DNA from: Bilabrum cf. latius
Lineage: Eukaryota
Reading direction: 5' to 3'
DNA length: 64,000 nucleotides
NCBI GenBank assembly: GCA_965178125.1
Contig: CBCXTV010000001.1
Span: 186,001 to 250,000 of the forward strand
Shown piece after piece: positions 1 through 64,000 of this stretch. The first letter of the stretch is position 1, and each line of letters starts with the position of its first letter. The notes under the pieces are model-generated. The model was not told the DNA's origin. It saw only the letters and a program-made list of their open reading frames with translations, and did not search any database. The position numbers and the translations under genes are program-made.

Positions 1-99
1 GGGCGGATCCTGCGGGAAGTCGTGGAGACTGAGGGCAGAGACTCTCGGGTCGGTCAGGGTCTCATGTAACGTGCTGTTCACCGCAGAGGTATGTGCGGA

Positions 100-353
100 T
101 CTTGGTGGATCTCTCGAGGACATGGGTGGCATACCGTTGTGCATCCGTTCCCCGGGGGGGGCGGTCGCAGAAGAGTGCACACGAAAACAAGAGGAAAGGA
201 GACCAACCCCCCAAACCCACGTAGTGCGATCCTGGGGGGTACCCTATAAGGTACTAAGAATCCTTCTCCCGAAAATCGCACTACCTCGGGCCACAACGTC
301 TTGGTGGATTCCTCGAGGACATGGGTGGCATACCGTTGTGCATCCGTTCCCCG
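100..353 (+). repeat. 55-bp direct repeats (100-154, 299-353) flanking a degenerate copy of the candidate origin hairpin
   Basis: TCTTGGTGGAT..CTCGAGGACATGGGTGGCATACCGTTGTGCATCCGTTCCCCG occurs twice; the enclosed DNA matches 15950-16080, including GTAGTGCGA...TCGCACTAC. Confidence 0.85.
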
Positions 354-3119
354 TCGCTCCCTAACGTCTTCAGTGGCAGGTTCGGAAAAGACACCTCCGT
401 AGGCACGCGACAAGTCCCGGTGAAGCGGGCTCGCACCGCGCTGGGCGGGAGATCGTGAGCGCTTAGAGGACCGGAGCTTTCGGGCGGGTGCGTGTCTCGA
501 CAAACTCCCTCTTGACCACGGGCGGGGAACGTGTAGGGCGGAAGCTAAAGACACCGTAAGTAGCGGAGGGCTAACATTCCGTCCTTCGGTGAGAGCCAAA
601 AGTTCGAGTCTGCGAGAGACTATTATACGAAGTTCTCCCCTCCTCATACGTGCGCATAGCCTCCTCACGCGGTAGCGCGAGCGCGGGACCCGGACCTGTC
701 CCTGATGGGCGTGAATCTGAACCCGGCGTACTCTCCTAGTCTGTCACTTCCACGACCTTGTTGTCGCGGAACCACTTGCACGGAGAGGAACCTGTCGTTC
801 AAGCGGGTGCAGCCGGACGCGCAGGTGTAGTGCATCGCCTTGCATATGTGCACGGCCAAGTAGATGCCGGAACCGTAGAGGTATCACACTTCCCGCGGAG
901 CTTGGGTGGGTCTTTCGCTGCTGTCGTCTGCTCCAGAAGGTTTGCGCCAAAAACCGGAAAACTTCTAAGACAGAGGTGGGATGCCAGGAGCTCACGGTCC
1001 TGCCGGATTGGGGAGGTCCATGCCCACGCGAGCCGGGTACGCGTCCAAATCAACGCACAGAGCGGGAGCTGAGGGCGCCAAGGACGCTCACTGTCAGGCA
1101 CACACAACGCGCACAGAATTCGTCATTTCGCGTTCAAAGCCTGCCAACGACGTGGCGCTTGGCGAAATGTGGTGGGTGGCGAAGATGTGGTACTTCGCCG
1201 TGCCTTTCTCTATGACGGCCAAGCGTGCACTCGCCATCGCGCTCGGACGCCACAGGAAGAGATCCCAGCTCGCAGCTCCGCCGCCTCATCCAGGAGTAAG
1301 GCGAAGTCGAATCGTGAATAGCGCTTCGCACCTTCACAGAGCCGAGGATCACAGATAGGCCCCGCCTCACAGAACCCAGCGCCATAGGGCAGAGCGTGAA
1401 GTACCTGGCCGCTTGGCTTGGCCGGACCCCCGCCCGCCCTCCGCCGGCAGCTCCTCCCGTCCGTCCCTATGGAGGCAGATCCGCGTACCCATGCTGCGGC
1501 GGGATCCTGACACAATCCGCTCCTCTTAGTGTGTGGCCGTGGGGCATGAGTGGAGCAGCATCGGGCCCTCACCAGCCGTGGAACGGAAGCAGCTCTCCGT
1601 GCGGCAGCTGTGCGATGCACAGACCTCGTCCCAAAGATACGGATCCATTTTGCCGTCTTCCCGCGCATACTGCATCGCTCTGCAAAACTGCATTGCGCAG
1701 TGGATCCCCGAGCGTCGACTGCCAATAGCAGGCGGCCTCGCAAGGCCTTCATGGACGCAGGATTTGGGCTTCTTCATCGTAAATTTGGGGTCTGCTCAGC
1801 GCGCGAAAATTCCAACGCTTCAAAATGATCCGGACGTCGCGAGAAGGGAACTCGTTGCTTGCTCACCTGTGCGGAGGGGTTGGATGCCCGATGTGCTAAA
1901 GAGAGGATACTGTCCGTCGGCGTTCTCTCTTCACCTTGTGCGGAAGGGTTGGGTGCCTGATTTCAGACAGAGAAGGTCTCGTCCGTTGGGAGCGCTTAGG
2001 AATACTTCCGGATGGGGCGTCCAGACGCGGTCCAGGACCTCCAGCTCGTCGGGGTCAATGTCGCCCGCGCCGTCCGTGCCTTTGACGCCTCTGGATCGAT
2101 GATGCCCACGATCTTTGTCATCTCGGACGACACACGTCCCAGCTGCTCTTTGGTAGTGCATTACCTCATTGACCCCGAAGCGTTGAATATTTAATGAAGA
2201 CCCTTCGGAAGCTGGCGAAGTTTGTCAGCTTGTCGGAGCGCAGCCTGGGTCCTTGTCAACAAACATGGAGGGTTTCGGGGCGGATTTCCAGCGTTCCGCC
2301 TTGATATCGAGTGCACCTCGAGGTCGGGATCGAAGCGGGGCGGGCGGTTCGTCATCCTCTGTGATACGCTTAGGAGGCGCCGACTTGATGCCCACCTTGT
2401 CCCCCAATCACTCCAGACGTAACTGGGGAACTCTTCCCGTCGTGGGCCGGGTACGCCTCCGAATCCCACGCGAGCCGTTCCCCACGGCGCACCGATAAGC
2501 GCCGCTGCAAGCGTACCAAGAGGGGCGTACCAAGAGGTGCTTCCTTCGCTCGGCAGTGTGGCACTTCAAGCAGTAGAATGTGCCACTCCCAGCACGTAGG
2601 TGGAGTTTGCGAGCTGCCGGCCGACATGCTCGTGTGGTGACCTCCGGCGCACCGATAAGTGCCGCTGCAAGCGCACCAATACTACTTCGCTTGGGAGCGA
2701 GGCACTTTAAGCAATGCAGTGCGCCGGTTTTCGTGCACGCCCAGTCGCGCGGACGCCGCAGGTGGCTTGGCCGTAGGATAGAATTAGTGGCGGGTCGGTT
2801 TTGCATGTCTTCCCTCTCCTCTTGATATGGTACACAAAGGCAAGAGCCTGACGATGCAGACGGAACTCCTGGATTTCACCGCCACATTCCTAGTCAAGAC
2901 AGCCCTCGACTAAACAGACGCCGAGTTATCTTGAGCAGCATCCCACGACGCAGTGATGTGGACGGCAAGGGTGATGCCATGCTTTCCGGGCCTCCCATGT
3001 GACCGCTTTTTGCGTACCGAAACACTTTCCGGGGTCGACGCCCCGGCGGAACACGCCGGCGCGGCGGCAAGCGTCGATGTTGCGGGCGGCCCAGCCATGA
3101 GGTACATGATCAAGTACAC

Positions 3120-4177
3120 GGAAAGCACGCAGAGCGTCGTCAATCCGTTCGTGAGCCGCGAGTTCCAAAAGGTCTTCGAGACATCCGCCCGGAAAGCACG
3201 CAGAGCATCGTCAATCCGTTCGTGAGCCGCGAGTTCCAGAAGGTCTTCGAGCACATCCCCCCGGAAAGCACGCAGAGCATCGTCAATCCGTTCGTGAGCC
3301 GCGAATTCCAGAAGGTCTTCGAGCACATCCCCCCGGAAAGCACGCAGAGCATCGTCAATCCGTTCGTGAGCCGCGAATTCCAAAAGGTCTTCGAGCACAT
3401 CCCCCGGATGATGTCGAGCATGCGGACGCCCTGCTCCGGATGATGTCGGCCATGCGGACGCTCTTCCCAGACCTTGCGCGGCAGCGGGACGAAAATGGAG
3501 CTCTCCCTGCACCGCAAGCACGCCGGAAACCTGGTGCACTTCCACGTGTGCATGACGGACTCCGAGAGGTCGCATCGTTGTCGCGTGGCGGAGGATTTCA
3601 TTTGGGCCGGCAGCAGGCCGAATGTCGTGTACGGCTTTAAGGTACCGAACCGGAGCTCCCGGCAGCAGCGCAGGCGGAGACATCCGCCCGGAAAGCACGC
3701 AGAGCATCGTCAATCCGTTCGTGAGCCGCGAGTTCCAGAAGGTCTTCGAGCACATCCCCCCGGAAAGCACGCAGAGCATCGTCAATCCGTTCGTGAGCCG
3801 CGAATTCCAGAAGGTCTTCGAGCACATCCCCCCGGAAAGCACGCAGAGCATCGTCAATCCGTTCGTGAGCCGCGAATTCCAAAAGGTCTTCGAGCACATC
3901 CCCCGGATGATGTCGAGCATGCGGACGCCCGGCTCCGGATGATGTCGGCCATGCGGACGCTCTTCCCAGACCTTGCGCGGCAGCGGGACGAAAATGGAGC
4001 TCTCCCTGCACCGCAAGCACGCCGGAAACCTGGTGCACTTCCACGTGTGCATGACGGACTCCGAGAGGTCGCATCGTTGTCGCGTGGCGGAGGATTTCAT
4101 TTGGGCCGGCAGCAGGCCGAATGTCGTGTACGGCTTTAAGGTACCGAACCGGAGCTCCCGGCAGCAGCGCAGGCGGC
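3120..4177 (+). repeat. 72-bp tandem repeats (4+3 copies) nested in a 499-bp tandem duplication
   Basis: GGAAAGCACGCAGAGC at 3120, 3191, 3263, 3335, 3690, 3762, 3834; ~3180-3678 repeats at ~3679-4177; unit derived from ORF910 at ~13723-13795. Confidence 0.95.
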
Positions 4178-4852
4178 ATGCTTGGGGCGGCACGTGGATC
4201 TTCGACGACGCCATTACGCTCAGCGATTGCGGGTCGAGGGTGCAGATCGACGCGCCGCAGTCGAAGGTCTTGGCGATGGTAATGCCCCGGAAGTCGGGCC
4301 AGTGGATTCCTCATAGGCTGCGCTCGCGTACGATCTGGTATTTGGGTGGGGAGCAGTCGGCCGTGATCACCAACCTCAAGTGCCAGGCCTGCCCCGGAAG
4401 TCGGGCCAGGGCATTCTCCGAGTCTCTTTGCCGATGATGTCTGAGGAGAAACCGTCCGAGAGCATTGCTGTTTCCTTGGGAGACGGCCGCAATCTTCGTG
4501 GGCGTCAAGGCGCCGGTAATATGGGAAACGAGGGCGGCATGTTGGCGCGCGAGGTCGACGCCCCGGCGGAGGGGGGGGGCCGTACGTGCCGTGACAGGTC
4601 GCGCCGGAGCCGGCGGAGGAGGCGACATGGACTTGCAACGCGTGCCAGGGCCTAAGCCCCGGTCAGAGTACTTCAAGAAGTGGAAGGACTGGATCCAACC
4701 AGTTTGCCGGGTGTGTTACGACAAGTTCGACAGCGCGACGCCGTGGTGGGTGAGGTGCAAGAACTGCAAAAACGAGTTTCCGGCGTACCGATTTCCCCAG
4801 ATCCGCCGGAAGAGGGACGGGCCTCGATCTCGGAAAGGGCGGGAGTCCGTTC

Positions 4853-6175
4853 TTGCATTCGGAATGGGCGGGGAGTTGCTTTTCCTGGGAGCATGTGCGA
4901 GATTCCTTCTCCGCGGGTCCTCTTTCGGCTTCGGCAGTCAGCAGCGCACTCTGCGGGAACGGCATTCTCCGAGTCTCTTTGCCGATGATGTCTGAGGAGA
5001 AACCGTCTGAAAGCATTGCTGTTTCCTTGGGAGACGGCCGCAATCTTCGTGGGCGTCGAGGCGCCGGTGATATGGGAAACGAGGGCGGCATGTTGGCGCG
5101 CGAGGTCGACGCGCCGGCGGAGCACGCCGGCGCGGCGGCAAGCGTCGATGATTCGGGCGGCCCCCACATCGAGAGCGGCGGCGCGGAGGCGGCGTCCACG
5201 GGGATGCTCGGAGAGGAGAGCGGCAAGGCAGCGCCGAAGGAGGACGCCGAAGACGACGGCGGCAAGAAGACGGAGGAGGAGGATGCTCGCGGCGGTGGAC
5301 GTGCTGTGGTGCCCGGAGGTAATGACGACGTATGGACCGACGCAGCAGCTTGGAAGGCGGGTGGCGGCGTGGCAGCCGGGGCGGTCTCTGGCGCTGATAG
5401 CTGGGCTCTATGGGGGACCCCTGCGAAGTCGTCATGGGGGGAGACGTACGTGCCGCGGCAGGTCGCGTCGGAGCCGGCGGAGGAGGCGACATGGACTTGC
5501 AACGCGTGCCAGTGCTGCAAGCCCCGGTCGGCGTACTTCAAGAAGTGGAAGGACTGGATCCAACCAGTTTGCCGGGTGTGTTGCGACAAGTTCGACAACG
5601 CGACGCCGTGGTGGGTGTGGTGCAAGAACTGCAAAAACGAGTATCCGGCGTACCGATTTCCCCAGATCCGCCGGAAGAAGGAGAACTTGCGCTATTTCTT
5701 CCCTGAGGACTGGTGCGCGAAGTGCCTGGTTGCGCGTGGCTGGAGTCTCCATGATGTCCGTTCCTCTGCGGGTGAAGCGAAGCGTTGGGTGCCAAAAGCT
5801 GGCGCGAATACCGGTGACGGCGACAACGACGCTCGTGCTCCCGCACGCGACGAGCTTCCTGCAGGAGGCGCCGCCTCCTGCAGCAACGCCGTGCATCAGA
5901 GTTCTTCGCGTGACGAGGCCTTGGATGACATCAACCGGGCCATGGAGCTTCTCCGGAATGCGGAGAAATTCATCTCCGCGATGCCATCGTGCATGCAGTG
6001 TGCGGTGCAGGACCAGTTGATGCAGGGCATCGTCAAAGACCAGGCCCTCTTGGATATCTTCTCCGGCAAGATAACGGACTGGATCAAATACCATCCGGCC
6101 ACTCTTGGGGCGATCCAATCCTATCGAAACGCATGGCTGTGGGCCGACGGAATGGCTCATGGTTGTCGAGGATGA
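4853..6175 (+). CDS. Chimeric paralog of the Cys-rich zinc-finger protein ORF430, with a C-terminus from ORF354 and ORF910 (expression unknown)
   Basis: Nearly identical to 20983-22275 up to AMELL, then QCAVQDQLMQG (ORF354) and IVKDQALLDIFSGKITDW...RNAWLWA (ORF910) in frame. Confidence 0.5.
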   Translation: MHSEWAGSCFSWEHVRDSFSAGPLSASAVSSALCGNGILRVSLPMMSEEKPSESIAVSLGDGRNLRGRRGAGDMGNEGGMLAREVDAPAEHAGAAASVDDSGGPHIESGGAEAASTGMLGEESGKAAPKEDAEDDGGKKTEEEDARGGGRAVVPGGNDDVWTDAAAWKAGGGVAAGAVSGADSWALWGTPAKSSWGETYVPRQVASEPAEEATWTCNACQCCKPRSAYFKKWKDWIQPVCRVCCDKFDNATPWWVWCKNCKNEYPAYRFPQIRRKKENLRYFFPEDWCAKCLVARGWSLHDVRSSAGEAKRWVPKAGANTGDGDNDARAPARDELPAGGAASCSNAVHQSSSRDEALDDINRAMELLRNAEKFISAMPSCMQCAVQDQLMQGIVKDQALLDIFSGKITDWIKYHPATLGAIQSYRNAWLWADGMAHGCRG

Positions 6176-6658
6176 TATCGAACCTCGCGAAGCATGCGTG
6201 GATCGGCTACTCGTAGTTCTTCACGCCATCGCGAAACCCCAAGGTGACGCAGATGGCCATGTTAGCGGGGTCAGAAGCACCGAGAATGGTCAGCCTCCAG
6301 CGCGGAAACTCACCTCATGCACAACTGCGAGCGCCTCTTGGACGTGCGGACCTATCCGGCGCACTGGGTAGACAACACATTTGTGGTCCCCTTCCACGTG
6401 GGCATGGGCCTAAAGTGGTATCTCATCAGCCCGGAGGGGAGGAAGGCGCTCCTGAAGATGCGGATCCCGAACCGAAGCTTCGAACGCTGCGTCTGGCGCC
6501 GCATCTTCGACACGTTCCAAGGGCCGGTATGTAATGTCCGTCGTGATGTCCGTGTGCGCGGCCCTGAGTTGGGGGGTTGTCTCGTCTGGGAAAAAACAGA
6601 GCGCGTGCCCATCTCCTACGAAGACTTGTGCGGTGTTCACGAGCACGCCGGCGAAACC
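6028..6658 (+). pseudogene. Frameshifted, internally deleted fragment of the GT25-like domain of ORF910 (also at 33222-33852 and 60417-61047)
   Basis: PTEWLMVVEDDIEPRE, HNCERLLDVRTYPAH and VWEKTERVPISYEDL fall in different frames; matches 11888-12409 and 12601-12726. Confidence 0.85.
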
Positions 6659-6834
6659 TCGAGTTTTGGCATCAAGATCGTGTCGCGGCCAGGCTGTACG
6701 ACGGCGGCAAGAAGACGGAGAAGGAGGATGCTCACGGTATCGCCCTGATCATCTGCACGACTTCGTGGGGCTCCATGACGTAACGGCGAGCGAGAACATT
6801 GACTGGTGGCGTGGCTGGAGGATCTCGGGAACAC

Positions 6835-6995
6835 ACGGCGGGCGAGCCGTTTTTCAAAAGGAGCACGGGTCCTTCGGGACGCCATTTCACTTACGGCGGG
6901 CGAGCCGTTTTCCGAATGGTGCGGGGGTCCTACTGATGCACACGGCGATCGCTGGTTCACTCACGGCGGGCGAGCCGTTTTCCGAATGGTGCGGA
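6835..6995 (+). repeat. Three copies of ACGGCGGGCGAGCCGTTTT(CCGAATGGTGCGG), each a small hairpin
   Basis: Motif at ~6835, ~6893 and ~6963; ACGGC...GCCGT is self-complementary. Confidence 0.8.
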
Positions 6996-7514
6996 GTCCT
7001 CCAGATGACCACGGTGATGGGTGGCAGCATGTCATAGGCGCGCCGTCGGAAGCTTCCCCTTCGAGTGATGCCTAAAACTGAGAAACCTGGAGATCCTAGC
7101 ATCGTATGGAGGCAAGAGGTAACACCTTGGGGTCCGTTCTCCGCTTCAATTCCTGTCCCAAATCCGATTCCCATTTCGAGACCGAAAAAGGTGACCCGGA
7201 AAACGACGGTACTTATTTCTGAACCGTTTTCCGGACGCTTTCCGGGTCTCCCATGTGACCGCTTTTTGCGTACCGAAACACGTTCCGCGCGTGAGGAGCA
7301 GATGCGGATCTCCGCGGGGTCCTATTTGTGTCTTTTTTCGGGGACGAAATCGGGCGCACTTCTCGTGCCGATTTGTGGTCGTCTCTGAAACCGGCTGCGA
7401 GTCGGGAAAGGTGCCCGAGATGCTTGTGTCCTTGGCTTCGTATTTCTCCGCATATTCTTCAAACGCGGGCGGCAGTGGCTCCTGCGCGGGAGCTTCCCGA
7501 GTGGGTCCGTCGTG

Positions 7515-7711
7515 CAGTGCGCTGGGTAGGTCCGCAGGTCAAGGAGGCGCTCGCAGTTATAGACGTAGGTGGAGTTTGCGAGCTGCCGGCCGACATGCTC
7601 ATGTGGTGACCGGAGGTCACCACATGAGCATGTCGGCCGGCAGCTCGCAAACCCCACCTGCGTCTATAACTGCGAACGCCTCCTTGACCTGCGGACCTAC
7701 CCAGCGCACTG
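7515..7711. repeat. 97-bp near-perfect inverted repeat with a 3-nt loop
   Basis: Arms 7515-7611 and 7615-7711, loop GGA, 3 non-Watson-Crick positions; the right arm ends in sequence homologous to ORF910 (NCERLLDLRTYPAH). Confidence 0.95.
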
Positions 7712-7791
7712 AGCAGACAACGCATTTGTGGTCCCCCTCCACGTCGGCATGGGCTTGAAGTGGTACCTCAGGAGGATTTCACTTGCGCCGG

Positions 7792-8695
7792 CCCCCAGGA
7801 TTTCGCCAAAAATGGCCGATCCGCACAAGGAATTTAAGTTGCGGCGACACAGCTCGGACCCTGGCTTTTTTTTGGCTGTTTCGGGGCCCCAAGAGGGCTC
7901 CCGGCCCCAAAAAGGGCAAAACGCGAGGTTGTGGTGGAAAAAATGGGCCCCAAGGAGTCTCCAAACGACGCAAAACGCCACGTTGTGGTGGATTTTAGAG
8001 CCCCTAAATCGCCCAAAAAAGACGCAAAACGCCACGTGGTGGTGGATTTTAGAGCCCCTAAATCGCCAAAAAAGACGCAAAACGCCACGTTGTAGTGGAT
8101 TTTAGAGCCCCTAAATCGCCCAAAAAAGACGCAAAACGCCACGTTGTGGTGTTTTTTTTGAGCGTTTTCGGGGGGCTCGGAAGGGGACCCCCCCAGGATT
8201 TGGCCAAAAATGGCCGATCCACACAAGGACTTTAAGTTGCGGCGACACAGTTCGGGCCCCGGTTTGTTTTTGCGGTTTGGGGGCCCCGAGAGGGCTCCCG
8301 GCCCCAAAAAGGGCAAAACGCGAGGTTGTGGTGGAAAAATGGGCCCCAGGCAGCCCCAAACGACGCAAAACGCCACGTTGTGGTGGATTTTAGAGCCCTA
8401 AATCGCCCAAAAAAGACGCAAAACGCCACGTTGTCGTGGATTTTAGAGCCCTAAATCGCCCCAAAGAGACGCAAAACGCCACGTTGTAGTGGATTTTAGA
8501 GCCCCTAAACCGCCCTAAAAAGACGCCAAACGCCACGTTGTGGTGTTTTTTTTGAGCGTTTTGGGGGGCCCGGAAGGGGACCCCCCCAGGATTTGGCCCA
8601 AAATGGCCGATCCACACAAGGAATTTAAGTTGCGGCGACACAGTTCGGGCCCCGGGGTTTGTTTTGCTGTTTGGGGGCCCCAAGAGGGCTCCCGG
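7792..8695. repeat. Satellite: 53-54-bp monomers inside a ~395-bp higher-order repeat
   Basis: GACGCAAAACGCCACGTTGTGGTGGATTTTAGAGCCCCTAAATCGCCCAAAAAA at 7967, 8021, 8074, 8128 and again from ~8362; CCCCCAGGATTT..CCAAAAATGGCCGATCC at ~7792, ~8190, ~8583. Confidence 0.93.
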
Positions 8696-11513
8696 GAGGC
8701 CCTAGAGTGGCCCTTCTCCGCTTCAATTCCTGTCCCAAATCCGATTCCCATTTCGAGACCGAAAAAGGTGACCCGGAAAACGACGGTACTCTCCGTCACT
8801 CCATCTGGCGGCGAAAATTGCCTCAGTTTCCGGTCCCCGATTCCGGGCCCAGGGACCCCCGAAATTCCCGATTCCGCGCAGTGCCGAAAGCTCGACATAA
8901 ACCACAAACACGACACACAACACAACACGATAGCGCCTCCCCACGCGCGGGATTGGGTCCTTCCGCTCGCTGCATGTGAGCTGCAGTGTGTTCTTGCCGG
9001 GAATGTCACTGGAAGTCGCGCTGCAGTCTGCTCAGGGCGCCTTATGACCATGAAGGCGTCTCAGCACCCGCGACGGCAAGAGGGGGCACGCACGACGTTG
9101 CGAAGCACCCGCCCTGGGTGAAGAAACTGCGTATCCACAGGAGTCACGTTCAGGTGCGCGAGAATTGGAAAGGCGGGGTAACTGGTGCAGAGGAGCTTGT
9201 TCGCAGCGCGGCTTCCACCAGCGCCGCTGACGGTAAGATGCATCGGTCTCGGTACATGAGTCGGCACGGTGTTGCGTGATTGACTTCACGATGCGGGAGT
9301 GTGCAGCCTTCCGCAGCGGGAGAATTGTATCTCCCCACGACCGCCGAAAAAAAAAAGAAGGCTATGCTGGACTCGTTCCAGGGAAGGCTATGCGATGAGT
9401 ATCTCTAGGCGCTTTCCGGAAGACCCACCCACTACACGCTGGTCAGCCCTCCCAAGCGGGAGTGAACCGCGGATCCGCGGGCCCGTGAGCGCTGCTGCTA
9501 CGATCATTTCTGCCCGTTTGACTCTCGCCCACTCTTGCCGTGACCAAAGACGCGCAGATCCTTATGACGCATGACACCTCGTCGAGGTGTCGAGACTGCC
9601 TCACATTCCCGTTACAAAGACCCACAGCACTGCGACAACGAAATCGGTCACGAAGAGAGCAAGAGGCCGCGCACCTGAGCATCACAAAAACCCCGAGAGA
9701 CATAAACAACACCGTCCCGTGAAGTCCCTGCGACGAGGGGATGCTAAGCGGCTCCCACGGCGGCTCCTCTGCGGGAAAAGCTGCCGCAGACCTCGAGATG
9801 GGATGCACATGACTGCGAAGATTGCGGAACTCGTCCGAAGCCGGTCGCACGAGGGTCACAGCGAATGGAGGCATATCTATGAAATAGAGTCTGCGTGCAA
9901 AGCAGCATTCCAACGATCGTCCGCATTCTTCCGAGCAAATCCTTGGGAGCACACATCCTGCGGACGACATCTCTTTTCTATCCACCCCAGCGTACTCCCC
10001 GCACACACTTCTCGCGAATGATTGAGAATTCTGTGCGGCACATGTAATATCAGGCTACCATGATACGCGGAATGGCGTGCTATTGCTCGCACGTTCGTGC
10101 GCCCCCTTCCGAATGCGCTTACCACATCACTATGTTCGTCGGCAACCGTATACACCGTAGGGGTCTTCCCTCCGACACCAAGCGTACACGACTGGCCGTA
10201 ATAGCGCAGCGTAGATGTTTCGGACGTCGCCCAGGACAAGTGTCGACGCCCGGTTCGTCACGATCACTACGTGTGCACTTCACTCACCGCCCTCCAGCCG
10301 CTAGACTTCTTTTGGAGCGCGACATCCTACGACGCGCTATGACACGTAGCCGTAAACCGCAGACGGCCTCGCGTTCACTGCTTGCAGCGCAAGAGCGTGA
10401 ACAAGAACCGCCCGCGTGGCACACCTTCGCAGGCGCGGAAGACAAAAAGTTCCTTCTAAGCTTGTATTCGGGTCCGAAAGCCAAATTCCACTTCGGGGTC
10501 GAGAAGGGCGACCCGGGAAATCACCGTACGCTCTGTGAATCCATTTCCCGGGGAAAGTCCCCGAGTTCCCGCTACCCGGTCCCAGGCCCAGCGACCCAGG
10601 AAAGTTCCCGTCCCCCCGCATGCGGAAACCTCCCACGAAGCACGCCCACCTCACGCTTCACACGCAAAAGTCCAGGAGTCAAATCCATTCCGGACCCAGC
10701 AGTTCACCCCCGTGACGATTGGGAAAGGCTCTTGCACACACCTTCTCGTCCGAGCAGTCTATGGAGCACACACCTGTCTTCGTTGCCTTTTCCGGCCAAA
10801 AATGCAGGGAGTTCGAAGGGGAAGTAGCAAGCGCGGAAGACCGCTTTCGAAACGCAGGTGCTCAGGGAAAAACAACCAGAGCGTCCCTGATCCTCGGCAG
10901 AGCCGTCCAGGAGGGACGGGCACGGACGGGCATCGCAGATCTTGCAGCGCCACCATTCGCCGGGATGGGCGACCGGACGAGGGCGACCACAAGTACGTAG
11001 CGTGCGACGTCCGTCAGTCGCCATGTTGCGCTGATTCGCTTTCGCGGCACGACTTCCAGGGCCGGCCTTACTCACTCCTCGGAGTCCGCGTGTGGATTCT
11101 CCCCTGCGCATGATCTGCCGCTCTAGATGCTACACAAAGATCCCGCTCGGATGACCCCCTCTGTGCATTCTGCAAGATTTTACGCGCCTCCATTCAATGC
11201 GCGAAGCATGCACCGCAGCAGTCTGAGTCCGGTGACCACCTTCAATAGCGTGGGACAAATTCCGTCCGCGATGTGCATTCGGGCATGCTCCCCTTTCCGA
11301 GTCTCTGTGACCCGTAGTGCGTCCGCGGCCAACGACTCAGGACTCCACGATGGTACGCACGAGTTGCATTCCTTGCACGAAGCGTGCGGAGAGAAAGCGA
11401 TGCTCAGACATCGAGGCGCTTGGAGGGTCTGCACGCGACATGCTTCGAGAGGCCATGCAAACATGCGAAACCAGAACTGAGGTTCCTCATCGTTCCTGCT
11501 GTCGAGCGCTCAA

Positions 11514-19051: not shown

Positions 19052-19255
19052 CGCCGGCCGCTGAGGTTTTCAGTCCGGTTCACACGAGCGCCGGAGCCGC
19101 AGCGGCAGCCGCTTCGGTGCTCCTGAAGGTCTAATGTCCTCAATGCGTTTCGTGTGCAAAAAGGATGTGGTTTCTACATGGGGGCATTCCGCAAGTTTCA
19201 TGTGGTCCGTCGCGTTCGTCCGGGGGAGTGCTTGCCTAGTATTGGGAGCTTGCCT

Positions 19256-54288: not shown

Positions 54289-57200
54289 GGGACCGCAGCG
54301 ACAGTAGCGTCGCTTAGGTGAGGAGCGGGTGCCAATGCTCTTTTGAAAATGGTGTGTCGTACGTACGGCAGGAGCCGTCGGTGGGAGCGGGGCGGATCCT
54401 GCGGGAAGTCGTGGAGACTGAGGGCAGAGACTCTCGGGTCGGTCAGGGTCTCATGTAACGTGCTGTTCACCGCAGAGGTATGTGCGGATCTTGGTGGATC
54501 TCTCGAGGACATGGGTGGCATACCGTTGTGCATCCGTTCCCCGGGGGGGGCGGTCGCAGAAGAGTGCACACGAAAACAAGAGGAAAGGAGACCAACCCCC
54601 CAAACCCACGTAGTGCGATCCTGGGGGGTACCCTATAAGGTACTAAGAATCCTTCTCCCGAAAATCGCACTACCTCGGGCCACAACGTCTTGGTGGATTC
54701 CTCGAGGACATGGGTGGCATACCGTTGTGCATCCGTTCCCCGTCGCTCCCTAACGTCTTCAGTGGCAGGTTCGGAAAAGACACCTCCGTAGGCACGCGAC
54801 AAGTCCCGGTGAAGCGGGCTCGCACCGCGCTGGGCGGGAGATCGTGAGCGCTTAGAGGACCGGAGCTTTCGGGCGGGTGCGTGTCTCGACAAACTCCCTC
54901 TTGACCACGGGCGGGGAACGTGTAGGGCGGAAGCTAAAGACACCGTAAGTAGCGGAGGGCTAACATTCCGTCCTTCGGTGAGAGCCAAAAGTTCGAGTCT
55001 GCGAGAGACTATTATACGAAGTTCTCCCCTCCTCATACGTGCGCATAGCCTCCTCACGCGGTAGCGCGAGCGCGGGACCCGGACCTGTCCCTGATGGGCG
55101 TGAATCTGAACCCGGCGTACTCTCCTAGTCTGTCACTTCCACGACCTTGTTGTCGCGGAACCACTTGCACGGAGAGGAACCTGTCGTTCAAGCGGGTGCA
55201 GCCGGACGCGCAGGTGTAGTGCATCGCCTTGCATATGTGCACGGCCAAGTAGATGCCGGAACCGTAGAGGTATCACACTTCCCGCGGAGCTTGGGTGGGT
55301 CTTTCGCTGCTGTCGTCTGCTCCAGAAGGTTTGCGCCAAAAACCGGAAAACTTCTAAGACAGAGGTGGGATGCCAGGAGCTCACGGTCCTGCCGGATTGG
55401 GGAGGTCCATGCCCACGCGAGCCGGGTACGCGTCCAAATCAACGCACAGAGCGGGAGCTGAGGGCGCCAAGGACGCTCACTGTCAGGCACACACAACGCG
55501 CACAGAATTCGTCATTTCGCGTTCAAAGCCTGCCAACGACGTGGCGCTTGGCGAAATGTGGTGGGTCGCGAAGATGTGGTACTTCGCCGTGCCTTTCTCT
55601 ATGACGGCCAAGCGTGCACTCGCCATCGCGCTCGGACGCCACAGGAAGAGATCCCAGCTCGCAGCTCCGCCGCCTCATCCAGGAGTAAGGCGAAGTCGAA
55701 TCGTGAATAGCGCTTCGCACCTTCACAGAGCCGAGGATCACAGATAGGCCCCGCCTCACAGAACCCAGCGCCATAGGGCAGAGCGTGAAGTACCTGGCCG
55801 CTTGGCTTGGCCGGACCCCCGCCCGCCCTCCGCCGGCAGCTCCTCCCGTCCGTCCCTATGGAGGCAGATCCGCGTACCCATGCTGCGGCGGGATCCTGAC
55901 ACAATCCGCTCCTCTTAGTGTGTGGCCGTGGGGCATGAGTGGAGCAGCATCGGGCCCTCACCAGCCGTGGAACGGAAGCAGCTCTCCGTGCGGCAGCTGT
56001 GCGATGCACAGACCTCGTCCCAAAGATACGGATCCATTTTGCCGTCTTCCCGCGCATACTGCATCGCTCTGCAAAACTGCATTGCGCAGTGGATCCCCGA
56101 GCGTCGACTGCCAATAGCAGGCGGCCTCGCAAGGCCTTCATGGACGCAGGATTTGGGCTTCTTCATCGTAAATTTGGGGTCTGCTCAGCGCGCGAAAATT
56201 CCAACGCTTCAAAATGATCCGGACGTCGCGAGAAGGGAACTCGTTGCTTGCTCACCTGTGCGGAGGGGTTGGATGCCCGATGTGCTAAAGAGAGGATACT
56301 GTCCGTCGGCGTTCTCTCTTCACCTTGTGCGGAAGGGTTGGGTGCCTGATTTCAGACAGAGAAGGTCTCGTCCGTTGGGAGCGCTTAGGAATACTTCCGG
56401 ATGGGGCGTCCAGACGCGGTCCAGGACCTCCAGCTCGTCGGGGTCAATGTCGCCCGCGCCGTCCGTGCCTTTGACGCCTCTGGATCGATGATGCCCACGA
56501 TCTTTGTCATCTCGGACGACACACGTCCCAGCTGCTCTTTGGTAGTGCATTACCTCATTGACCCCGAAGCGTTGAATATTTAATGAAGACCCTTCGGAAG
56601 CTGGCGAAGTTTGTCAGCTTGTCGGAGCGCAGCCTGGGTCCTTGTCAACAAACATGGAGGGTTTCGGGGCGGATTTCCAGCGTTCCGCCTTGATATCGAG
56701 TGCACCTCGAGGTCGGGATCGAAGCGGGGCGGGCGGTTCGTCATCCTCTGTGATACGCTTAGGAGGCGCCGACTTGATGCCCACCTTGTCCCCCAATCAC
56801 TCCAGACGTAACTGGGGAACTCTTCCCGTCGTGGGCCGGGTACGCCTCCGAATCCCACGCGAGCCGTTCCCCACGGCGCACCGATAAGCGCCGCTGCAAG
56901 CGTACCAAGAGGGGCGTACCAAGAGGTGCTTCCTTCGCTCGGCAGTGTGGCACTTCAAGCAGTAGAATGTGCCACTCCCAGCACGTAGGTGGAGTTTGCG
57001 AGCTGCCGGCCGACATGCTCGTGTGGTGACCTCCGGCGCACCGATAAGTGCCGCTGCAAGCGCACCAATACTACTTCGCTTGGGAGCGAGGCACTTTAAG
57101 CAATGCAGTGCGCCGGTTTTCGTGCACGCCCGGTCGCGCGGACGCCGCAGGTGGCTTGGCCGTAGGATAGAATTAGTGGCGGGTCGGTTTTGCATGTCTT

Positions 57201-57508
57201 CCCTCTCCTCTTGATATGGTACACAAAGGCAAGAGCCTGACGATGCAGACGGAACTCCTGGATTTCACCGCCACATTCCTAGTCAAGACAGCCCTCGACT
57301 AAACAGACGCCGAGTTATCTTGAGCAGCATCCCACGACGCAGTGATGTGGACGGCAAGGGTGATGCCATGCTTTCCGGGCCTCCCATGTGACCGCTTTTT
57401 GCGTACCGAAACACTTTCCGGGGTCGACGCCCCGGCGGAACACGCCGGCGCGGCGGCAAGCGTCGATGTTGCGGGCGGCCCAGCCATGAGGTACATGATC
57501 AAGTACAC

Positions 57509-58566
57509 GGAAAGCACGCAGAGCATCGTCAATCCGTTCGTGAGCCGCGAGTTCCAAAAGGTCTTCGAGACATCCGCCCGGAAAGCACGCAGAGCATCGT
57601 CAATCCGTTCGTGAGCCGCGAGTTCCAGAAGGTCTTCGAGCACATCCCCCCGGAAAGCACGCAGAGCATCGTCAATCCGTTCGTGAGCCGCGAATTCCAG
57701 AAGGTCTTCGAGCACATCCCCCCGGAAAGCACGCAGAGCATCGTCAATCCGTTCGTGAGCCGCGAATTCCAAAAGGTCTTCGAGCACATCCCCCGGATGA
57801 TGTCGAGCATGCGGACGCCCTGCTCCGGATGATGTCGGCCATGCGGACGCTCTTCCCAGACCTTGCGCGGCAGCGGGACGAAAATGGAGCTCTCCCTGCA
57901 CCGCAAGCACGCCGGAAACCTGGTGCACTTCCACGTGTGCATGACGGACTCCGAGAGGTCGCATCGTTGTCGCGTGGCGGAGGATTTCATTTGGGCCGGC
58001 AGCAGGCCGAATGTCGTGTACGGCTTTAAGGTACCGAACCGGAGCTCCCGGCAGCAGCGCAGGCGGAGACATCCGCCCGGAAAGCACGCAGAGCATCGTC
58101 AATCCGTTCGTGAGCCGCGAGTTCCAGAAGGTCTTCGAGCACATCCCCCCGGAAAGCACGCAGAGCATCGTCAATCCGTTCGTGAGCCGCGAATTCCAGA
58201 AGGTCTTCGAGCACATCCCCCCGGAAAGCACGCAGAGCATCGTCAATCCGTTCGTGAGCCGCGAATTCCAAAAGGTCTTCGAGCACATCCCCCGGATGAT
58301 GTCGAGCATGCGGACGCCCGGCTCCGGATGATGTCGGCCATGCGGACGCTCTTCCCAGACCTTGCGCGGCAGCGGGACGAAAATGGAGCTCTCCCTGCAC
58401 CGCAAGCACGCCGGAAACCTGGTGCACTTCCACGTGTGCATGACGGACTCCGAGAGGTCGCATCGTTGTCGCGTGGCGGAGGATTTCATTTGGGCCGGCA
58501 GCAGGCCGAATGTCGTGTACGGCTTTAAGGTACCGAACCGGAGCTCCCGGCAGCAGCGCAGGCGGC
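57509..58566 (+). repeat. 72-bp/499-bp nested repeats, copy 3
   Basis: Duplicate of 3120-4177. Confidence 0.95.
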
Positions 58567-59241
58567 ATGCTTGGGGCGGCACGTGGATCTTCGACGACGC
58601 CATTACGCTCAGCGATTGCGGGTCGAGGGTGCAGATCGACGCGCCGCAGTCGAAGGTCTTGGCGATGGTAATGCCCCGGAAGTCGGGCCAGTGGATTCCT
58701 CATAGGCTGCGCTCGCGTACGATCTGGTATTTGGGTGGGGAGCAGTCGGCCGTGATCACCAACCTCAAGTGCCAGGCCTGCCCCGGAAGTCGGGCCAGGG
58801 CATTCTCCGAGTCTCTTTGCCGATGATGTCTGAGGAGAAACCGTCCGAGAGCATTGCTGTTTCCTTGGGAGACGGCCGCAATCTTCGTGGGCGTCAAGGC
58901 GCCGGTAATATGGGAAACGAGGGCGGCATGTTGGCGCGCGAGGTCGACGCCCCGGCGGAGGGGGGGGGCCGTACGTGCCGTGACAGGTCGCGCCGGAGCC
59001 GGCGGAGGAGGCGACATGGACTTGCAACGCGTGCCAGGGCCTAAGCCCCGGTCAGAGTACTTCAAGAAGTGGAAGGACTGGATCCAACCAGTTTGCCGGG
59101 TGTGTTACGACAAGTTCGACAGCGCGACGCCGTGGTGGGTGAGGTGCAAGAACTGCAAAAACGAGTTTCCGGCGTACCGATTTCCCCAGATCCGCCGGAA
59201 GAGGGACGGGCCTCGATCTCGGAAAGGGCGGGAGTCCGTTC

Positions 59242-60564
59242 TTGCATTCGGAATGGGCGGGGAGTTGCTTTTCCTGGGAGCATGTGCGAGATTCCTTCTC
59301 CGCGGGTCCTCTTTCGGCTTCGGCAGTCAGCAGCGCACTCTGCGGGAACGGCATTCTCCGAGTCTCTTTGCCGATGATGTCTGAGGAGAAACCGTCTGAA
59401 AGCATTGCTGTTTCCTTGGGAGACGGCCGCAATCTTCGTGGGCGTCGAGGCGCCGGTGATATGGGAAACGAGGGCGGCATGTTGGCGCGCGAGGTCGACG
59501 CGCCGGCGGAGCACGCCGGCGCGGCGGCAAGCGTCGATGATTCGGGCGGCCCCCACATCGAGAGCGGCGGCGCGGAGGCGGCGTCCACGGGGATGCTCGG
59601 AGAGGAGAGCGGCAAGGCAGCGCCGAAGGAGGACGCCGAAGACGACGGCGGCAAGAAGACGGAGGAGGAGGATGTTCGCGGCGGTGGACGTGCTGTGGTG
59701 CCCGGAGGTAATGACGACGTATGGACCGACGCAGCAGCTTGGAAGGCGGGTGGCGGCGTGGCAGCCGGGGCGGTCTCTGGCGCTGATAGCTGGGCTCTAT
59801 GGGGGACCCCTGCGAAGTCGTCATGGGGGGAGACGTACGTGCCGCGGCAGGTCGCGTCGGAGCCGGCGGAGGAGGCGACATGGACTTGCAACGCGTGCCA
59901 GTGCTGCAAGCCCCGGTCGGCGTACTTCAAGAAGTGGAAGGACTGGATCCAACCAGTTTGCCGGGTGTGTTGCGACAAGTTCGACAACGCGACGCCGTGG
60001 TGGGTGTGGTGCAAGAACTGCAAAAACGAGTATCCGGCGTACCGATTTCCCCAGATCCGCCGGAAGAAGGAGAACTTGCGCTATTTCTTCCCTGAGGACT
60101 GGTGCGCGAAGTGCCTGGTTGCGCGTGGCTGGAGTCTCCATGATGTCCGTTCCTCTGCGGGTGAAGCGAAGCGTTGGGTGCCAAAAGCTGGCGCGAATAC
60201 CGGTGACGGCGACAACGACGCTCGTGCTCCCGCACGCGACGAGCTTCCTGCAGGAGGCGCCGCCTCCTGCAGCAACGCCGTGCATCAGAGTTCTTCGCGT
60301 GACGAGGCCTTGGATGACATCAACCGGGCCATGGAGCTTCTCCGGAATGCGGAGAAATTCATCTCCGCGATGCCATCGTGCATGCAGTGTGCGGTGCAGG
60401 ACCAGTTGATGCAGGGCATCGTCAAAGACCAGGCCCTCTTGGATATCTTCTCCGGCAAGATAACGGACTGGATCAAATACCATCCGGCCACTCTTGGGGC
60501 GATCCAATCCTATCGAAACGCATGGCTGTGGGCCGACGGAATGGCTCATGGTTGTCGAGGATGA
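59242..60564 (+). CDS. Chimeric zinc-finger ORF, copy 3
   Basis: One A-to-V change relative to copy 1. Confidence 0.5.
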   Translation: MHSEWAGSCFSWEHVRDSFSAGPLSASAVSSALCGNGILRVSLPMMSEEKPSESIAVSLGDGRNLRGRRGAGDMGNEGGMLAREVDAPAEHAGAAASVDDSGGPHIESGGAEAASTGMLGEESGKAAPKEDAEDDGGKKTEEEDVRGGGRAVVPGGNDDVWTDAAAWKAGGGVAAGAVSGADSWALWGTPAKSSWGETYVPRQVASEPAEEATWTCNACQCCKPRSAYFKKWKDWIQPVCRVCCDKFDNATPWWVWCKNCKNEYPAYRFPQIRRKKENLRYFFPEDWCAKCLVARGWSLHDVRSSAGEAKRWVPKAGANTGDGDNDARAPARDELPAGGAASCSNAVHQSSSRDEALDDINRAMELLRNAEKFISAMPSCMQCAVQDQLMQGIVKDQALLDIFSGKITDWIKYHPATLGAIQSYRNAWLWADGMAHGCRG

Positions 60565-61903
60565 TATCGAACCTCGCGAAGCATGCGTGGATCGGCTACT
60601 CGTAGTTCTTCACGCCATCGCGAAACCCCAAGGTGACGCAGATGGCCATGTTAGCGGGGTCAGAAGCACCGAGAATGGTCAGCCTCCAGCGCGGAAACTC
60701 ACCTCATGCACAACTGCGAGCGCCTCTTGGACGTGCGGACCTATCCGGCGCACTGGGTAGACAACACATTTGTGGTCCCCTTCCACGTGGGCATGGGCCT
60801 AAAGTGGTATCTCATCAGCCCGGAGGGGAGGAAGGCGCTCCTGAAGATGCGGATCCCGAACCGAAGCTTCGAACGCTGCGTCTGGCGCCGCATCTTCGAC
60901 ACGTTCCAAGGGCCGGTATGTAATGTCCGTCGTGATGTCCGTGTGCGCGGCCCTGAGTTGGGGGGTTGTCTCGTCTGGGAAAAAACAGAGCGCGTGCCCA
61001 TCTCCTACGAAGACTTGTGCGGTGTTCACGAGCACGCCGGCGAAACCTCGAGTTTTGGCATCAAGATCGTGTCGCGGCCAGGCTGTACGACGGCGGCAAG
61101 AAGACGGAGAAGGAGGATGCTCACGGTATCGCCCTGATCATCTGCACGACTTCGTGGGGCTCCATGACGTAACGGCGAGCGAGAACATTGACTGGTGGCG
61201 TGGCTGGAGGATCTCGGGAACACACGGCGGGCGAGCCGTTTTTGAAAAGGAGCACGGGTCCTTCGGGACGCCATTTCACTTACGGCGGGCGAGCCGTTTT
61301 CCGAATGGTGCGGGGGTCCTACTGATGCACACGGCGATCGCTGGTTCACTCACGGCGGGCGAGCCGTTTTCCGAATGGTGCGGAGTCCTCCAGATGACCA
61401 CGGTGATGGGTGGCAGCATGTCATAGGCGCGCCGTCGGAAGCTTCCCCTTCGAGTGATGCCTAAAACTGAGAAACCTGGAGATCCTAGCATCGTATGGAG
61501 GCAAGAGGTAACACCTTGGGGTCCGTTCTCCGCTTCAATTCCTGTCCCAAATCCGATTCCCATTTCGAGACCGAAAAAGGTGACCCGGAAAACGACGGTA
61601 CTTATTTCTGAACCGTTTTCCGGACGCTTTCCGGGTCTCCCATGTGACCGCTTTTTGCGTACCGAAACACGTTCCGCGCGTGAGGAGCAGATGCGGATCT
61701 CCGCGGGGTCCTATTTGTGTCTTTTTTCGGGGACGAAATCGGGCGCACTTCTCGTGCCGATTTGTGGTCGTCTCTGAAACCGGCTGCGAGTCGGGAAAGG
61801 TGCCCGAGATGCTTGTGTCCTTGGCTTCGTATTTCTCCGCATATTCTTCAAACGCGGGCGGCAGTGGCTCCTGCGCGGGAGCTTCCCGAGTGGGTCCGTC
61901 GTG

Positions 61904-62100
61904 CAGTGCGCTGGGTAGGTCCGCAGGTCAAGGAGGCGCTCGCAGTTATAGACGTAGGTGGAGTTTGCGAGCTGCCGGCCGACATGCTCATGTGGTGACC
62001 GGAGGTCACCACATGAGCATGTCGGCCGGCAGCTCGCAAACCCCACCTGCGTCTATAACTGCGAACGCCTCCTTGACCTGCGGACCTACCCAGCGCACTG
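61904..62100. repeat. 97-bp inverted repeat, copy 3
   Basis: Duplicate of 7515-7711. Confidence 0.95.
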
Positions 62101-62180
62101 AGCAGACAACGCATTTGTGGTCCCCCTCCACGTCGGCATGGGCTTGAAGTGGTACCTCAGGAGGATTTCACTTGCGCCGG

Positions 62181-63084
62181 CCCCCAGGATTTCGCCAAAA
62201 ATGGCCGATCCGCACAAGGAATTTAAGTTGCGGCGACACAGCTCGGACCCTGGCTTTTTTTTGGCTGTTTCGGGGCCCCAAGAGGGCTCCCGGCCCCAAA
62301 AAGGGCAAAACGCGAGGTTGTGGTGGAAAAAATGGGCCCCAAGGAGTCTCCAAACGACGCAAAACGCCACGTTGTGGTGGATTTTAGAGCCCCTAAATCG
62401 CCCAAAAAAGACGCAAAACGCCACGTGGTGGTGGATTTTAGAGCCCCTAAATCGCCAAAAAAGACGCAAAACGCCACGTTGTAGTGGATTTTAGAGCCCC
62501 TAAATCGCCCAAAAAAGACGCAAAACGCCACGTTGTGGTGTTTTTTTTGAGCGTTTTCGGGGGGCTCGGAAGGGGACCCCCCCAGGATTTGGCCAAAAAT
62601 GGCCGATCCACACAAGGACTTTAAGTTGCGGCGACACAGTTCGGGCCCCGGTTTGTTTTTGCGGTTTGGGGGCCCCGAGAGGGCTCCCGGCCCCAAAAAG
62701 GGCAAAACGCGAGGTTGTGGTGGAAAAATGGGCCCCAGGCAGCCCCAAACGACGCAAAACGCCACGTTGTGGTGGATTTTAGAGCCCTAAATCGCCCAAA
62801 AAAGACGCAAAACGCCACGTTGTCGTGGATTTTAGAGCCCTAAATCGCCCCAAAGAGACGCAAAACGCCACGTTGTAGTGGATTTTAGAGCCCCTAAACC
62901 GCCCTAAAAAGACGCCAAACGCCACGTTGTGGTGTTTTTTTTGAGCGTTTTGGGGGGCCCGGAAGGGGACCCCCCCAGGATTTGGCCCAAAATGGCCGAT
63001 CCACACAAGGAATTTAAGTTGCGGCGACACAGTTCGGGCCCCGGGGTTTGTTTTGCTGTTTGGGGGCCCCAAGAGGGCTCCCGG
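62181..63084. repeat. Satellite, copy 3
   Basis: Duplicate of 7792-8695. Confidence 0.93.
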
Positions 63085-64000
63085 GAGGCCCTAGAGTGGC
63101 CCTTCTCCGCTTCAATTCCTGTCCCAAATCCGATTCCCATTTCGAGACCGAAAAAGGTGACCCGGAAAACGACGGTACTCTCCGTCACTCCATCTGGCGG
63201 CGAAAATTGCCTCAGTTTCCGGTCCCCGATTCTGGGCCCAGGGACCCCCGAAATTCCCGATTCCGCGCAGTGCCGAAAGCTCGACATAAACCACAAACAC
63301 GACACACAACACAACACGATAGCGCCTCCCCACGCGCGGGATTGGGTCCTTCCGCTCGCTGCATGTGAGCTGCAGTGTGTTCTTGCCGGGAATGTCACTG
63401 GAAGTCGCGCTGCAGTCTGCTCAGGGCGCCTTATGACCATGAAGGCGTCTCAGCACCCGCGACGGCAAGAGGGGGCACGCACGACGTTGCGAAGCACCCG
63501 CCCTGGGTGAAGAAACTGCGTATCCACAGGAGTCACGTTCAGGTGCGCGAGAATTGGAAAGGCGGGGTAACTGGTGCAGAGGAGCTTGTTCGCAGCGCGG
63601 CTTCCACCAGCGCCGCTGACGGTAAGATGCATCGGTCTCGGTACATGAGTCGGCACGGTGTTGCGTGATTGACTTCACGATGCGGGAGTGTGCAGCCTTC
63701 CGCAGCGGGAGAATTGTATCTCCCCACGACCGCCGAAAAAAAAAAGAAGGCTATGCTGGACTCGTTCCAGGGAAGGCTATGCGATGAGTATCTCTAGGCG
63801 CTTTCCGGAAGACCCACCCACTACACGCTGGTCAGCCCTCCCAAGCGGGAGTGAACCGCGGATCCGCGGGCCCGTGAGCGCTGCTGCTACGATCATTTCT
63901 GCCCGTTTGACTCTCGCCCACTCTTGCCGTGACCAAAGACGCGCAGATCCTTATGACGCATGACACCTCGTCGAGGTGTCGAGACTGCCTCACATTCCCG

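Follow-up and report, generated by a model that had tools for sequence, protein, structure and literature searches.

We analyzed a 64,000-nt stretch of DNA filed under Bilabrum cf. latius (assembly GCA_965178125.1, contig CBCXTV010000001.1, positions 186,001 to 250,000; here called the window) and found that it consists of a 27.2-kb unit repeated head to tail, with a predicted replication initiator gene (rep) and an origin-like hairpin and iteron module in every unit. In the reading that we favor, at a probability of roughly 40%, the window lies inside a genuine multimer of a Rep-based 27.2-kb element, whose head-to-tail form would trace to replication driven by Rep from its origin and would later have been fixed. 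The analysis covered the whole window, and both ends of the array fall outside it. The array is laid out as follows.

Positions 1 to 64000, no strand assigned: head-to-tail array made up of copy 1 (1-27194), copy 2 (27195-54389), and a partial copy 3 (54390-64000; 9,611 bp).

Offsets between shared 20-mers peaked at 27,195 (20,539 k-mers) and 27,194 (7,410 k-mers). Self-BLAST aligned positions 1-36805 with 27195-64000 over 36,806 columns (99.924% identity, 27 mismatches, and 1 gap) and positions 1-9611 with 54390-64000 (99.938% identity, 6 mismatches). With a unit of 27,194 or 27,195 bp, the window spans 2.35 head-to-tail units (64,000/27,194.5) without any spacer, and a repeat of this length is far beyond chance. 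An earlier note, made from the letters of this DNA alone, had described about 2.35 direct copies of a 27.2-kb unit with no spacer, roughly 25 differences between them, and intact major open reading frames (ORFs). The 20-mer offsets and self-BLAST bear out the first of these claims, and our own count came to 26 distinct substitution sites over all copies plus one indel. Copies 1 and 2 are separated by 20 substitutions and by that sole indel, a C5 versus C6 homopolymer near position 10706; comparison of the partial copy 3 with copies 1 and 2 gives 6 and 7 differing sites, respectively. G-to-C or C-to-G transversions account for 10 of the 26 variant sites, and the ratio of transitions to transversions is 11:15. 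The major ORFs are indeed intact: rep and the neighboring genes listed further below (ORF921, a pogo-like ORF, C473, C441, and O366) are free of stop codons in copies 1 and 2, C473 is open in copy 3 as well, and only a doubtful ORF at 10048-10827 is broken, in copy 2, through the indel.

The differences are clustered. Nineteen of the 20 substitutions between copies 1 and 2 fall within 11221-24232 (13.0 of 27.2 kb; post hoc binomial P = 9e-6), and the longest difference-free gap between these copies extends over 10,747 bp (maximum-gap permutation P = 0.0015). Copies 1 and 2 differ at a single site over the first 11.2 kb; it lies within the first 9.6 kb, where copy 3 departs from both at 6 sites. 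No common flanking sequence context that would point to systematic base-calling error was found at the variant sites. When the five ORF921 differences were polarized with a 98%-identical relative (P0001) as the outgroup, three proved private to copy 1 and two to copy 2. A simple gene-conversion tract was ruled out as the source of four differences in C441, with which paralogue-diagnostic sites are interleaved. Such a pattern is what one expects of distinct molecules or array members that have mutated and been locally homogenized over time.

The earlier note had explained the repeat as either a Rep-amplified array or a circle that the assembler unrolled. The first proposal gains from the intact Rep in the unit; the second, in its clonal form, is disfavored because the differences are clustered and comprise 26 substitution sites against 1 indel. 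By itself, the pattern of differences is equally compatible with a chromosomal array and with a heterogeneous population of episomes, and it does not tell the two apart. A circular 27.2-kb episome, present as such a population or as true oligomers and laid out linearly by a long-read assembler with no chromosomal array behind it, would be furnished by Rep and the origin module with what an episome needs. The window never exits the repeat, and a 98%-identical relative of ORF921 sits on a contig of 25,927 bp, near one unit length, as a collapsed repeat or a circle would assemble from short reads. We nevertheless regard an episome as unlikely on balance. A window taken from within a long array would look identical, phased distinct copies require joining reads, and a nonrandom set of substitutions with a single homopolymer indel is unlike the error profile of one clonal circle.

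The initiator gene, on which the favored reading turns, occupies the following positions.

Positions 16766 to 19051 (copy 2, 43961-46246), plus strand: rep, 761 aa, with a predicted HUH Y1 endonuclease, a helical linker, and an SF3 helicase.

The N-terminal ~330 aa of Rep are of low complexity and include a basic KRRRL cluster, whereas residues 330-761 make up the endonuclease, linker, and helicase. Searches at the sequence level returned little. The ORF matched no Pfam family even at E ≤ 5, and a PDB sequence search (phmmer) gave no match. A PDB profile search gave nothing significant (the top match, RBX1 at E = 0.13, was judged to be chance), PHROGs and NCBIfam held no match, and tblastn against plasmids and phages yielded no usable match. 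The curated Rep models (Viral_Rep, Gemini_AL1, RNA_helicase, and Parvo_NS1) were unmatched, and just 2 of 62 relatives matched Gemini_AL1_M, weakly (E = 0.0012). A word-index search found no matches with the whole of Rep and 10 with residues 330-761; the sole label among them was one generic "hypothetical protein." An exhaustive HMMER search with residues 330-761 put the family at 1,359 or more clusters (50% identity): that many representatives had E ≤ 1e-3, and of these 893 had E ≤ 1e-10 and 214 had E ≤ 1e-30, the best being 51 to 52% identical. In a collection of bacterial and archaeal genomes, a search with the family profile found one 1.9-kb contig, L001 (PIVT01000289.1, 1-1859). It encodes a 568-aa family member that is open (truncated) at its 5′ end, and it is filed under a proteobacterial metagenome-assembled genome; we consider it probably a misbinned eukaryotic or viral fragment. 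A basic RRRL-type cluster is present in all 7 relatives with a long N-terminal extension in one of our alignments (A3), as well as in the window Rep and L001, and may represent a nuclear localization signal (NLS).

The alignment of 62 family members revealed the catalytic motifs that a HUH endonuclease and an SF3 helicase would carry. E114, H127, H129, Y177, K182, G296, E343, and N389 are invariant, and G301, K302, and D342 are conserved in at least 90% of sequences; T303 is invariant in a 12-sequence alignment. We assign E114 with H127/H129 to the Glu-plus-HxH metal site, G296 to Walker A, E343 to Walker B, and N389 to motif C. An AlphaFold2 model built from an alignment (pLDDT, 92; pTM, 0.77) replaced a single-sequence run (pLDDT, 33.7). 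It places E114, H127, and H129 on adjacent strands; HUH motif II and an upstream acidic metal ligand are both present. Motif III reads HYYxQAPK, with Y176 conserved in at least 90% of sequences and with the Tyr and Lys at the end of a helix, in a spacing unlike that of the canonical YxxK.

Structural comparison of the model gave concordant results. Foldseek against the PDB matched Rep68 of adeno-associated virus 2 (AAV2; 9bc5) at E = 1.7e-7 over 495 columns, and further full-length matches were Vientovirus Rep, NS1 of parvovirus B19 (B19V), E1 of bovine papillomavirus (BPV), and the large T antigen (LTag) of simian virus 40 (SV40). The helicase domain matched the folds of the AAV Rep40/68, E1, and LTag helicases. 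Against BFVD, at least 500 matches reached E ≤ 1e-3; among the 50 matches listed, many were nameless, and the named ones were all CRESS-DNA virus Rep or parvovirus NS1 (E from 3e-14, ~400 columns). In a language-model Atlas, the nearest neighbors of the Rep embedding were Cressdnaviricota Rep clusters (0.96 to 0.97). We conclude that ORF 16766-19051 is, by modeled fold and conserved motifs, a Y1 HUH endonuclease fused to an SF3 helicase, the architecture of CRESS Reps, in a deeply divergent and unannotated family. At that level, the rolling-circle initiator that the earlier note had ascribed to the unit is real, and the corresponding enzymatic activity would be expected of it. About 200 bp 3′ of the rep stop codon lies a (CA)n/(GT)n palindromic hairpin (19256-19309) with 23-nt arms that are 87% complementary.

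Beside rep, and as an addition to what the earlier note had reported, we found an origin-like hairpin and iteron module. It and the related repeats of the unit are the following.

Positions 15952 to 16262 (copy 2, 43147-43457), plus strand: origin-like module with a stem-loop, iterons, and an A/T-rich tract, ending 509 bp before the rep ATG.
Positions 101 to 353 (also 27295-27547 and 54490-54742), plus strand: second hairpin copy, a 145-bp insert (155-299) between 54-bp direct repeats.
Positions 7792 to 8695, plus strand: 2.3 copies of a 394-bp repeat with 53/54-bp sub-repeats, each containing CACGTTGTGG.

The hairpin stem of the module (GTAGTGCGA/TCGCACTAC, 16013-16076) closes a 46-nt loop that encloses a mini-hairpin. 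GCACTAC iterons stand in direct orientation at 16070, 16115, 16157, 16241, and 16251, and another lies on the minus strand in the left arm. With both arms counted, there are six in 245 bp (16013-16257), the one in the right arm being followed by four further direct repeats. Four of the GCACTAC repeats extend to AGCACTAC, and the heptamer occurs 28 times in the whole window against 3.16 expected. An A/T-rich tract (~16170-16230) lies between iterons, and the lowest GC content of the unit (0.53) falls at the module. A stem-loop with iterons directly upstream of rep is the origin layout of CRESS viruses and geminiviruses. The module near rep thus looks like an origin, and its architecture suggests that it could be the cognate site of this Rep.

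The hairpin belongs to a 134-bp element that is found twice per unit (156-289 and 15952-16081, ~90% identical), with 5 occurrences in the window. Fold z-scores range from −3.0 to −4.6 against shuffled sequences, the values for the origin module being −3.4 and −4.6. The two hairpins are 15.8 kb apart and split the unit into arcs of 15.8 and 11.4 kb, the latter with rep, C441, the pogo-type ORF, and O366. The second copy (155-299) is ~90% identical to 15952-16084 and has no iteron cluster. As read in copy 2, its flanking 54-bp direct repeats (101-154 and 300-353) are 96% identical, and it resembles a copy-in event with a long target duplication. The sub-repeat sequence CACGTTGTGG of the 394-bp repeats matches the hairpin arm CACGTAGTGC at 8 of 10 bases, and the degenerate form CACGTWGTGS is found 19 times in the window where 0.54 would be expected; the 7792-8695 repeats may be a second iteron-like array.

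A hairpin copy between direct repeats would also suit a Helitron- or Replitron-type transposon that formed tandem copies through terminator read-through, and HUH transposons can yield tandem copies. We consider this highly improbable. The fold of the helicase, which matches AAV Rep, E1, and LTag, puts it in SF3 and not in the SF1B type of Helitrons, and the catalytic tyrosines are arranged as YY, not in the YxxxY spacing of Y2 enzymes. According to an excerpt of their description, Helitrons combine a Y2 Rep with an SF1B (Pif1-like) helicase, and Replitrons have a Y1 Rep with no helicase (PMC10288648). The likeness to these transposons, as excerpted there, consists in a Rep-class HUH enzyme resident in eukaryotes and in hairpins and short repeats near the ends; a Y1-type Rep with a fused SF3 helicase falls outside the definition of either.

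The left part of the unit preserves fragments of its own genes, arranged as follows.

Positions 1815 to 7770, plus strand: patchwork of 29- to 1,169-bp pieces copied from rep, C441, O366, and ORF921.
Positions 3119 to 4176, plus strand: 72-bp tandem repeats from ORF921 (13723-13798) nested within a 499-bp unit that is itself repeated.
Positions 7515 to 7711, no strand assigned: 197-nt palindrome with 97-nt arms (97% complementary) and a 3-nt loop, from ORF921 (12174-12303).

Pieces of rep are found at 1815-1858, 3460-3493, 3491-3636, 3990-4135, and 6733-6786, and the 499-bp unit, which is present twice (99.8% identity), includes a 146-bp rep fragment. Between the unit halves, 22 of 23 matches are direct; the exception, in inverted orientation, is a short palindrome. 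The pieces stand in a scrambled order, and one would have to go around the unit several times to account for it. Scrambled fragments in direct orientation are as expected from repeated deletions inside a head-to-tail multimer. Identity is layered, rising from 90% for the hairpin element through 94 to 98% for the gene pieces to 99.92% for whole units, which gives the present unit the look of a higher-order repeat produced by successive rounds of tandem amplification. If transcribed, the 7515-7711 palindrome could give a long hairpin RNA against ORF921; alternatively, it could be a snap-back replication product.

The favored reading would join these observations in the following way. Rep would bind the GCACTAC iterons and nick within the hairpin loop, the presumed nick site, and the nick would prime rolling-circle or recombination-dependent replication. 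Missed termination would then yield head-to-tail multimers, one of which would have been fixed, most probably through chromosomal integration or else by persisting as an episome. Deletions inside earlier multimers would have left the direct-orientation gene fragments and the second hairpin, making the unit a higher-order repeat, and later point mutation with local homogenization would have produced the clustered divergence of 0.07%. In support, rep is intact in both full copies, and an initiator gene and an origin-like site accompany each other in every unit.

Several points weigh against this reading. Rep activity is presumed to have formed the array, both of whose ends lie outside the window, and the one locus found for a Rep relative, L001, is a 1.9-kb fragment. 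The unit is ~10 times larger than any CRESS-type replicon known to us. The canonical nonanucleotide NANTATTAC is absent from the entire window. At the hairpin and iteron module (15201-16800), AT skew flips from +0.437 to −0.138 between flanking genes on the same strand, which fits a bidirectional origin or a transcription switch and not unidirectional rolling-circle synthesis. Among the 146 ORFs of 100 aa or more, no gene for a capsid or another virion component was detected, and only about a quarter of the unit is recognizably coding. All 8 differences inside ORF921 and rep are nonsynonymous (3 of them exchange D and E); purifying selection since the duplication has left no sign, eight sites being too few for a test. 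Finally, concerted evolution on a chromosome would explain the clustered differences no less well than any other model.

The last points lead to an ordinary chromosomal macrosatellite, which we hold to be possible, though less probable than the favored reading. Here, a segment with endogenized Rep, glycosyltransferase-like, and pogo-type genes would have been amplified and kept uniform through gene conversion and unequal exchange between sister chromatids; Rep would be a passenger, and the hairpin and iterons a relic or a promoter. The mosaic distribution of differences, the nonsynonymous character of all 8 coding changes, the low coding density, and the many internal segmental duplications are all consistent with such a history, and unequal crossing-over between tandem units also produces fragments in direct orientation only. 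An intact rep with all catalytic residues beside a textbook origin architecture would, however, be an unexplained coincidence for a dead passenger. Comparable arrays also have a known attribution: the tandem Rep arrays of GRD are ascribed to viral multimers. The same derivation is proposed for the slightly diverged arrays of EGV1 in an excerpted report that cites GRD of Nicotiana alongside (PMC5014472). Macrosatellites and ribosomal DNA (rDNA) arrays resemble the window in having units of tens of kilobases, >99.9% identity, and mosaic differences consistent with concerted evolution. They differ in that the window unit carries its own initiator gene and origin-like site. An rDNA-type array was ruled out, no rRNA or other Rfam family being present in 1-30000.

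The other genes of the unit, all of whose large ORFs lie on the plus strand, are the following.

Positions 11736 to 14246, plus strand: ORF921, coding sequence of 836 aa from a conserved ~850-aa family; GC content 0.78 at third codon positions (GC3) against 0.43 at second positions (GC2).
Positions 24437 to 26074, plus strand: pogo/Tc1-type DDE transposase ORF, 545 aa, identical in copies 1 and 2.
Positions 4754 to 6175, plus strand: C473, a Cys-rich ORF and paralogue of C441 (4823-5991 is 98% identical to 21106-22274).
Positions 20950 to 22275, plus strand: C441, a Cys-rich ORF and paralogue of C473.
Positions 25993 to 27093, plus strand: O366, with Cys motifs, a weak Stc1 match (E = 0.05), and GC3 of 0.78.

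ORF921 and the Rep core share a coding contrast between GC3 (0.76 to 0.78) and GC2 (0.43). ORF921 has 8 full-length relatives at 29 to 98% identity and an S/R-rich C-terminal tail with KRxRL. ORF921 itself has no Pfam match, and its N-terminal part (residues ~75-150) is probably a GT25-like glycosyltransferase domain, an assignment to which four weak signals point in concert: Pfam GT25 in 2 of 9 family members at E = 0.005, PHROG 854 (glucosyltransferase) at E = 0.0012, mimivirus R655 in the PDB at E = 1.4, and, with the relative P0005 as a stand-in for ORF921, Nucleocytoviricota GT25/GT11 neighbors in the Atlas (0.93 to 0.94). The pogo-type DDE ORF, implied in the earlier note by its mention of pogo transposition, was confirmed by Pfam DDE_1 (PF03184; E = 2.2e-11, 43.8 to 44.1 bits against a cutoff of 22, profile positions 16-141 of 177), and weak matches to HTH_Tnp_Tc5 and to an IS630 NCBIfam model were also present. 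Terminal inverted repeats with TA duplication were searched for around it and not found; its surroundings held a single 15-nt inverted pair (23232-23246/27058-27072) with no TA flanks and with one arm within an ORF. C473 appears to be a chimeric ORF, its 3′ end being captured in frame from ORF921 (6028-6531 against 11888-12409, 94%). The captured piece, within 6028-6658, matches 11888-12409 and 12601-12725 at 94 to 99%. Scanned against Pfam, 144 of the 146 ORFs with 100 aa or more (the other 2 were scanned separately) yielded no further family at E ≤ 0.001 other than a weak, subthreshold match to PUF repeats in two ORFs, both overlapping the 72-bp repeats.

The GC content of the window is ~60%. 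In 1-27194, TpA falls well below expectation (observed/expected, 0.435), unlike CpG (1.10). An Rfam scan of 1-30000 and a tRNA scan found no family and no tRNA gene. A dinoflagellate spliced-leader motif was not found with up to 3 mismatches, and six telomere-type motifs looked for in the window were absent. Three features, namely, the pogo-type gene, the NLS-like clusters, and a low density of coding sequence, suggest that the DNA comes from a eukaryotic nucleus or from an element that lives in one.

A bolder form of the favored reading would take the unit, or its hairpin-bounded 11.4-kb rep-pogo core, as the genome of an undescribed eukaryotic plasmid- or virus-like element with its own origin and a divergent HUH-SF3 Rep, which had recruited a pogo-type DDE gene, possibly for integration, and a giant-virus-type glycosyltransferase. 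It would be by far the largest eukaryotic replicon with a CRESS-type Rep, seen here as a rolling-circle multimer. We think this rather unlikely.

Comparison with known Rep systems places the element near CRESS viruses in architecture and apart from them in scale. With the Reps of Cressdnaviricota and of pCRESS plasmids, the window Rep shares the order of HUH Y1 endonuclease, helical oligomerization-type linker, and SF3 helicase; conserved motifs I and II (HxH), a Tyr and a Lys at motif III, and the Walker A, Walker B, and motif C elements of the helicase; these Reps are also its best structural matches. CRESS genomes in general also have iterons beside a stem-loop upstream of rep. The window Rep differs in an identity of 12 to 17% in structural alignments with no sequence-profile match, in the ~330-aa N-terminal extension, in a ~55-aa helical insert after motif I, and in the HYYxQAPK form of motif III. 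Compared with Cressdnaviricota genomes, the 27.2-kb unit is an order of magnitude larger and has neither a capsid gene nor a nonanucleotide of the NANTATTAC type. Parvovirus NS1 and AAV Rep68 provide the best solved-structure match over both domains, with a Glu-plus-HxH metal site and a Tyr followed by ...PK, as is the case in the AAV Rep motif. TM-scores are low (0.24) because domain orientation differs, there is no similarity at the sequence level, and the unit lacks the terminal hairpin telomeres of a linear genome.

The endogenous geminivirus-like EGV1 of Dioscorea (yam) consists of tandem 2.6-kb units with rep and an origin stem-loop, as given in the excerpted source (PMC5014472). The window resembles EGV1 and GRD, as portrayed there, in its head-to-tail repeats, slightly diverged copies, and units with a stem-loop and a rep bearing rolling-circle motifs. 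It differs in unit size, in having no NANTATTAC where EGV1 has a TAATATTAC loop, and in a Rep that escapes all Pfam Rep models whereas that of EGV1 is recognizably geminiviral. The unit further adds the glycosyltransferase-like gene, the pogo-type DDE gene, and its own deletion debris. Keyword searches of the open-access literature, which were not exhaustive, turned up no account of a tandem unit that encodes a Rep and is comparably large. Endogenous Rep elements in tandem arrays are already known; new here are the roughly 10-fold larger unit, the glycosyltransferase-like and pogo-type genes, the noncanonical origin, and a large Rep family invisible to Pfam.

If the array arose by ordinary tandem duplication, the finding shrinks to an intact endogenous Rep gene of a new family, which would be useful but modest. 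That family is large (1,359 clusters) and yet invisible to Pfam, and current pipelines for annotating viruses and transposons would therefore miss it. Rep-driven replicons of eukaryotes are known as single-stranded DNA viruses of a few kilobases and as their short endogenous arrays. If, instead, this Rep replicates or amplifies a 27-kb double-stranded DNA unit, then (i) rolling-circle initiators would extend to large eukaryotic elements; (ii) CRESS-type replication modules would be linked with DDE transposases and giant-virus-type genes; and (iii) the array would offer a concrete case for the Rep-mediated birth of macrosatellites.

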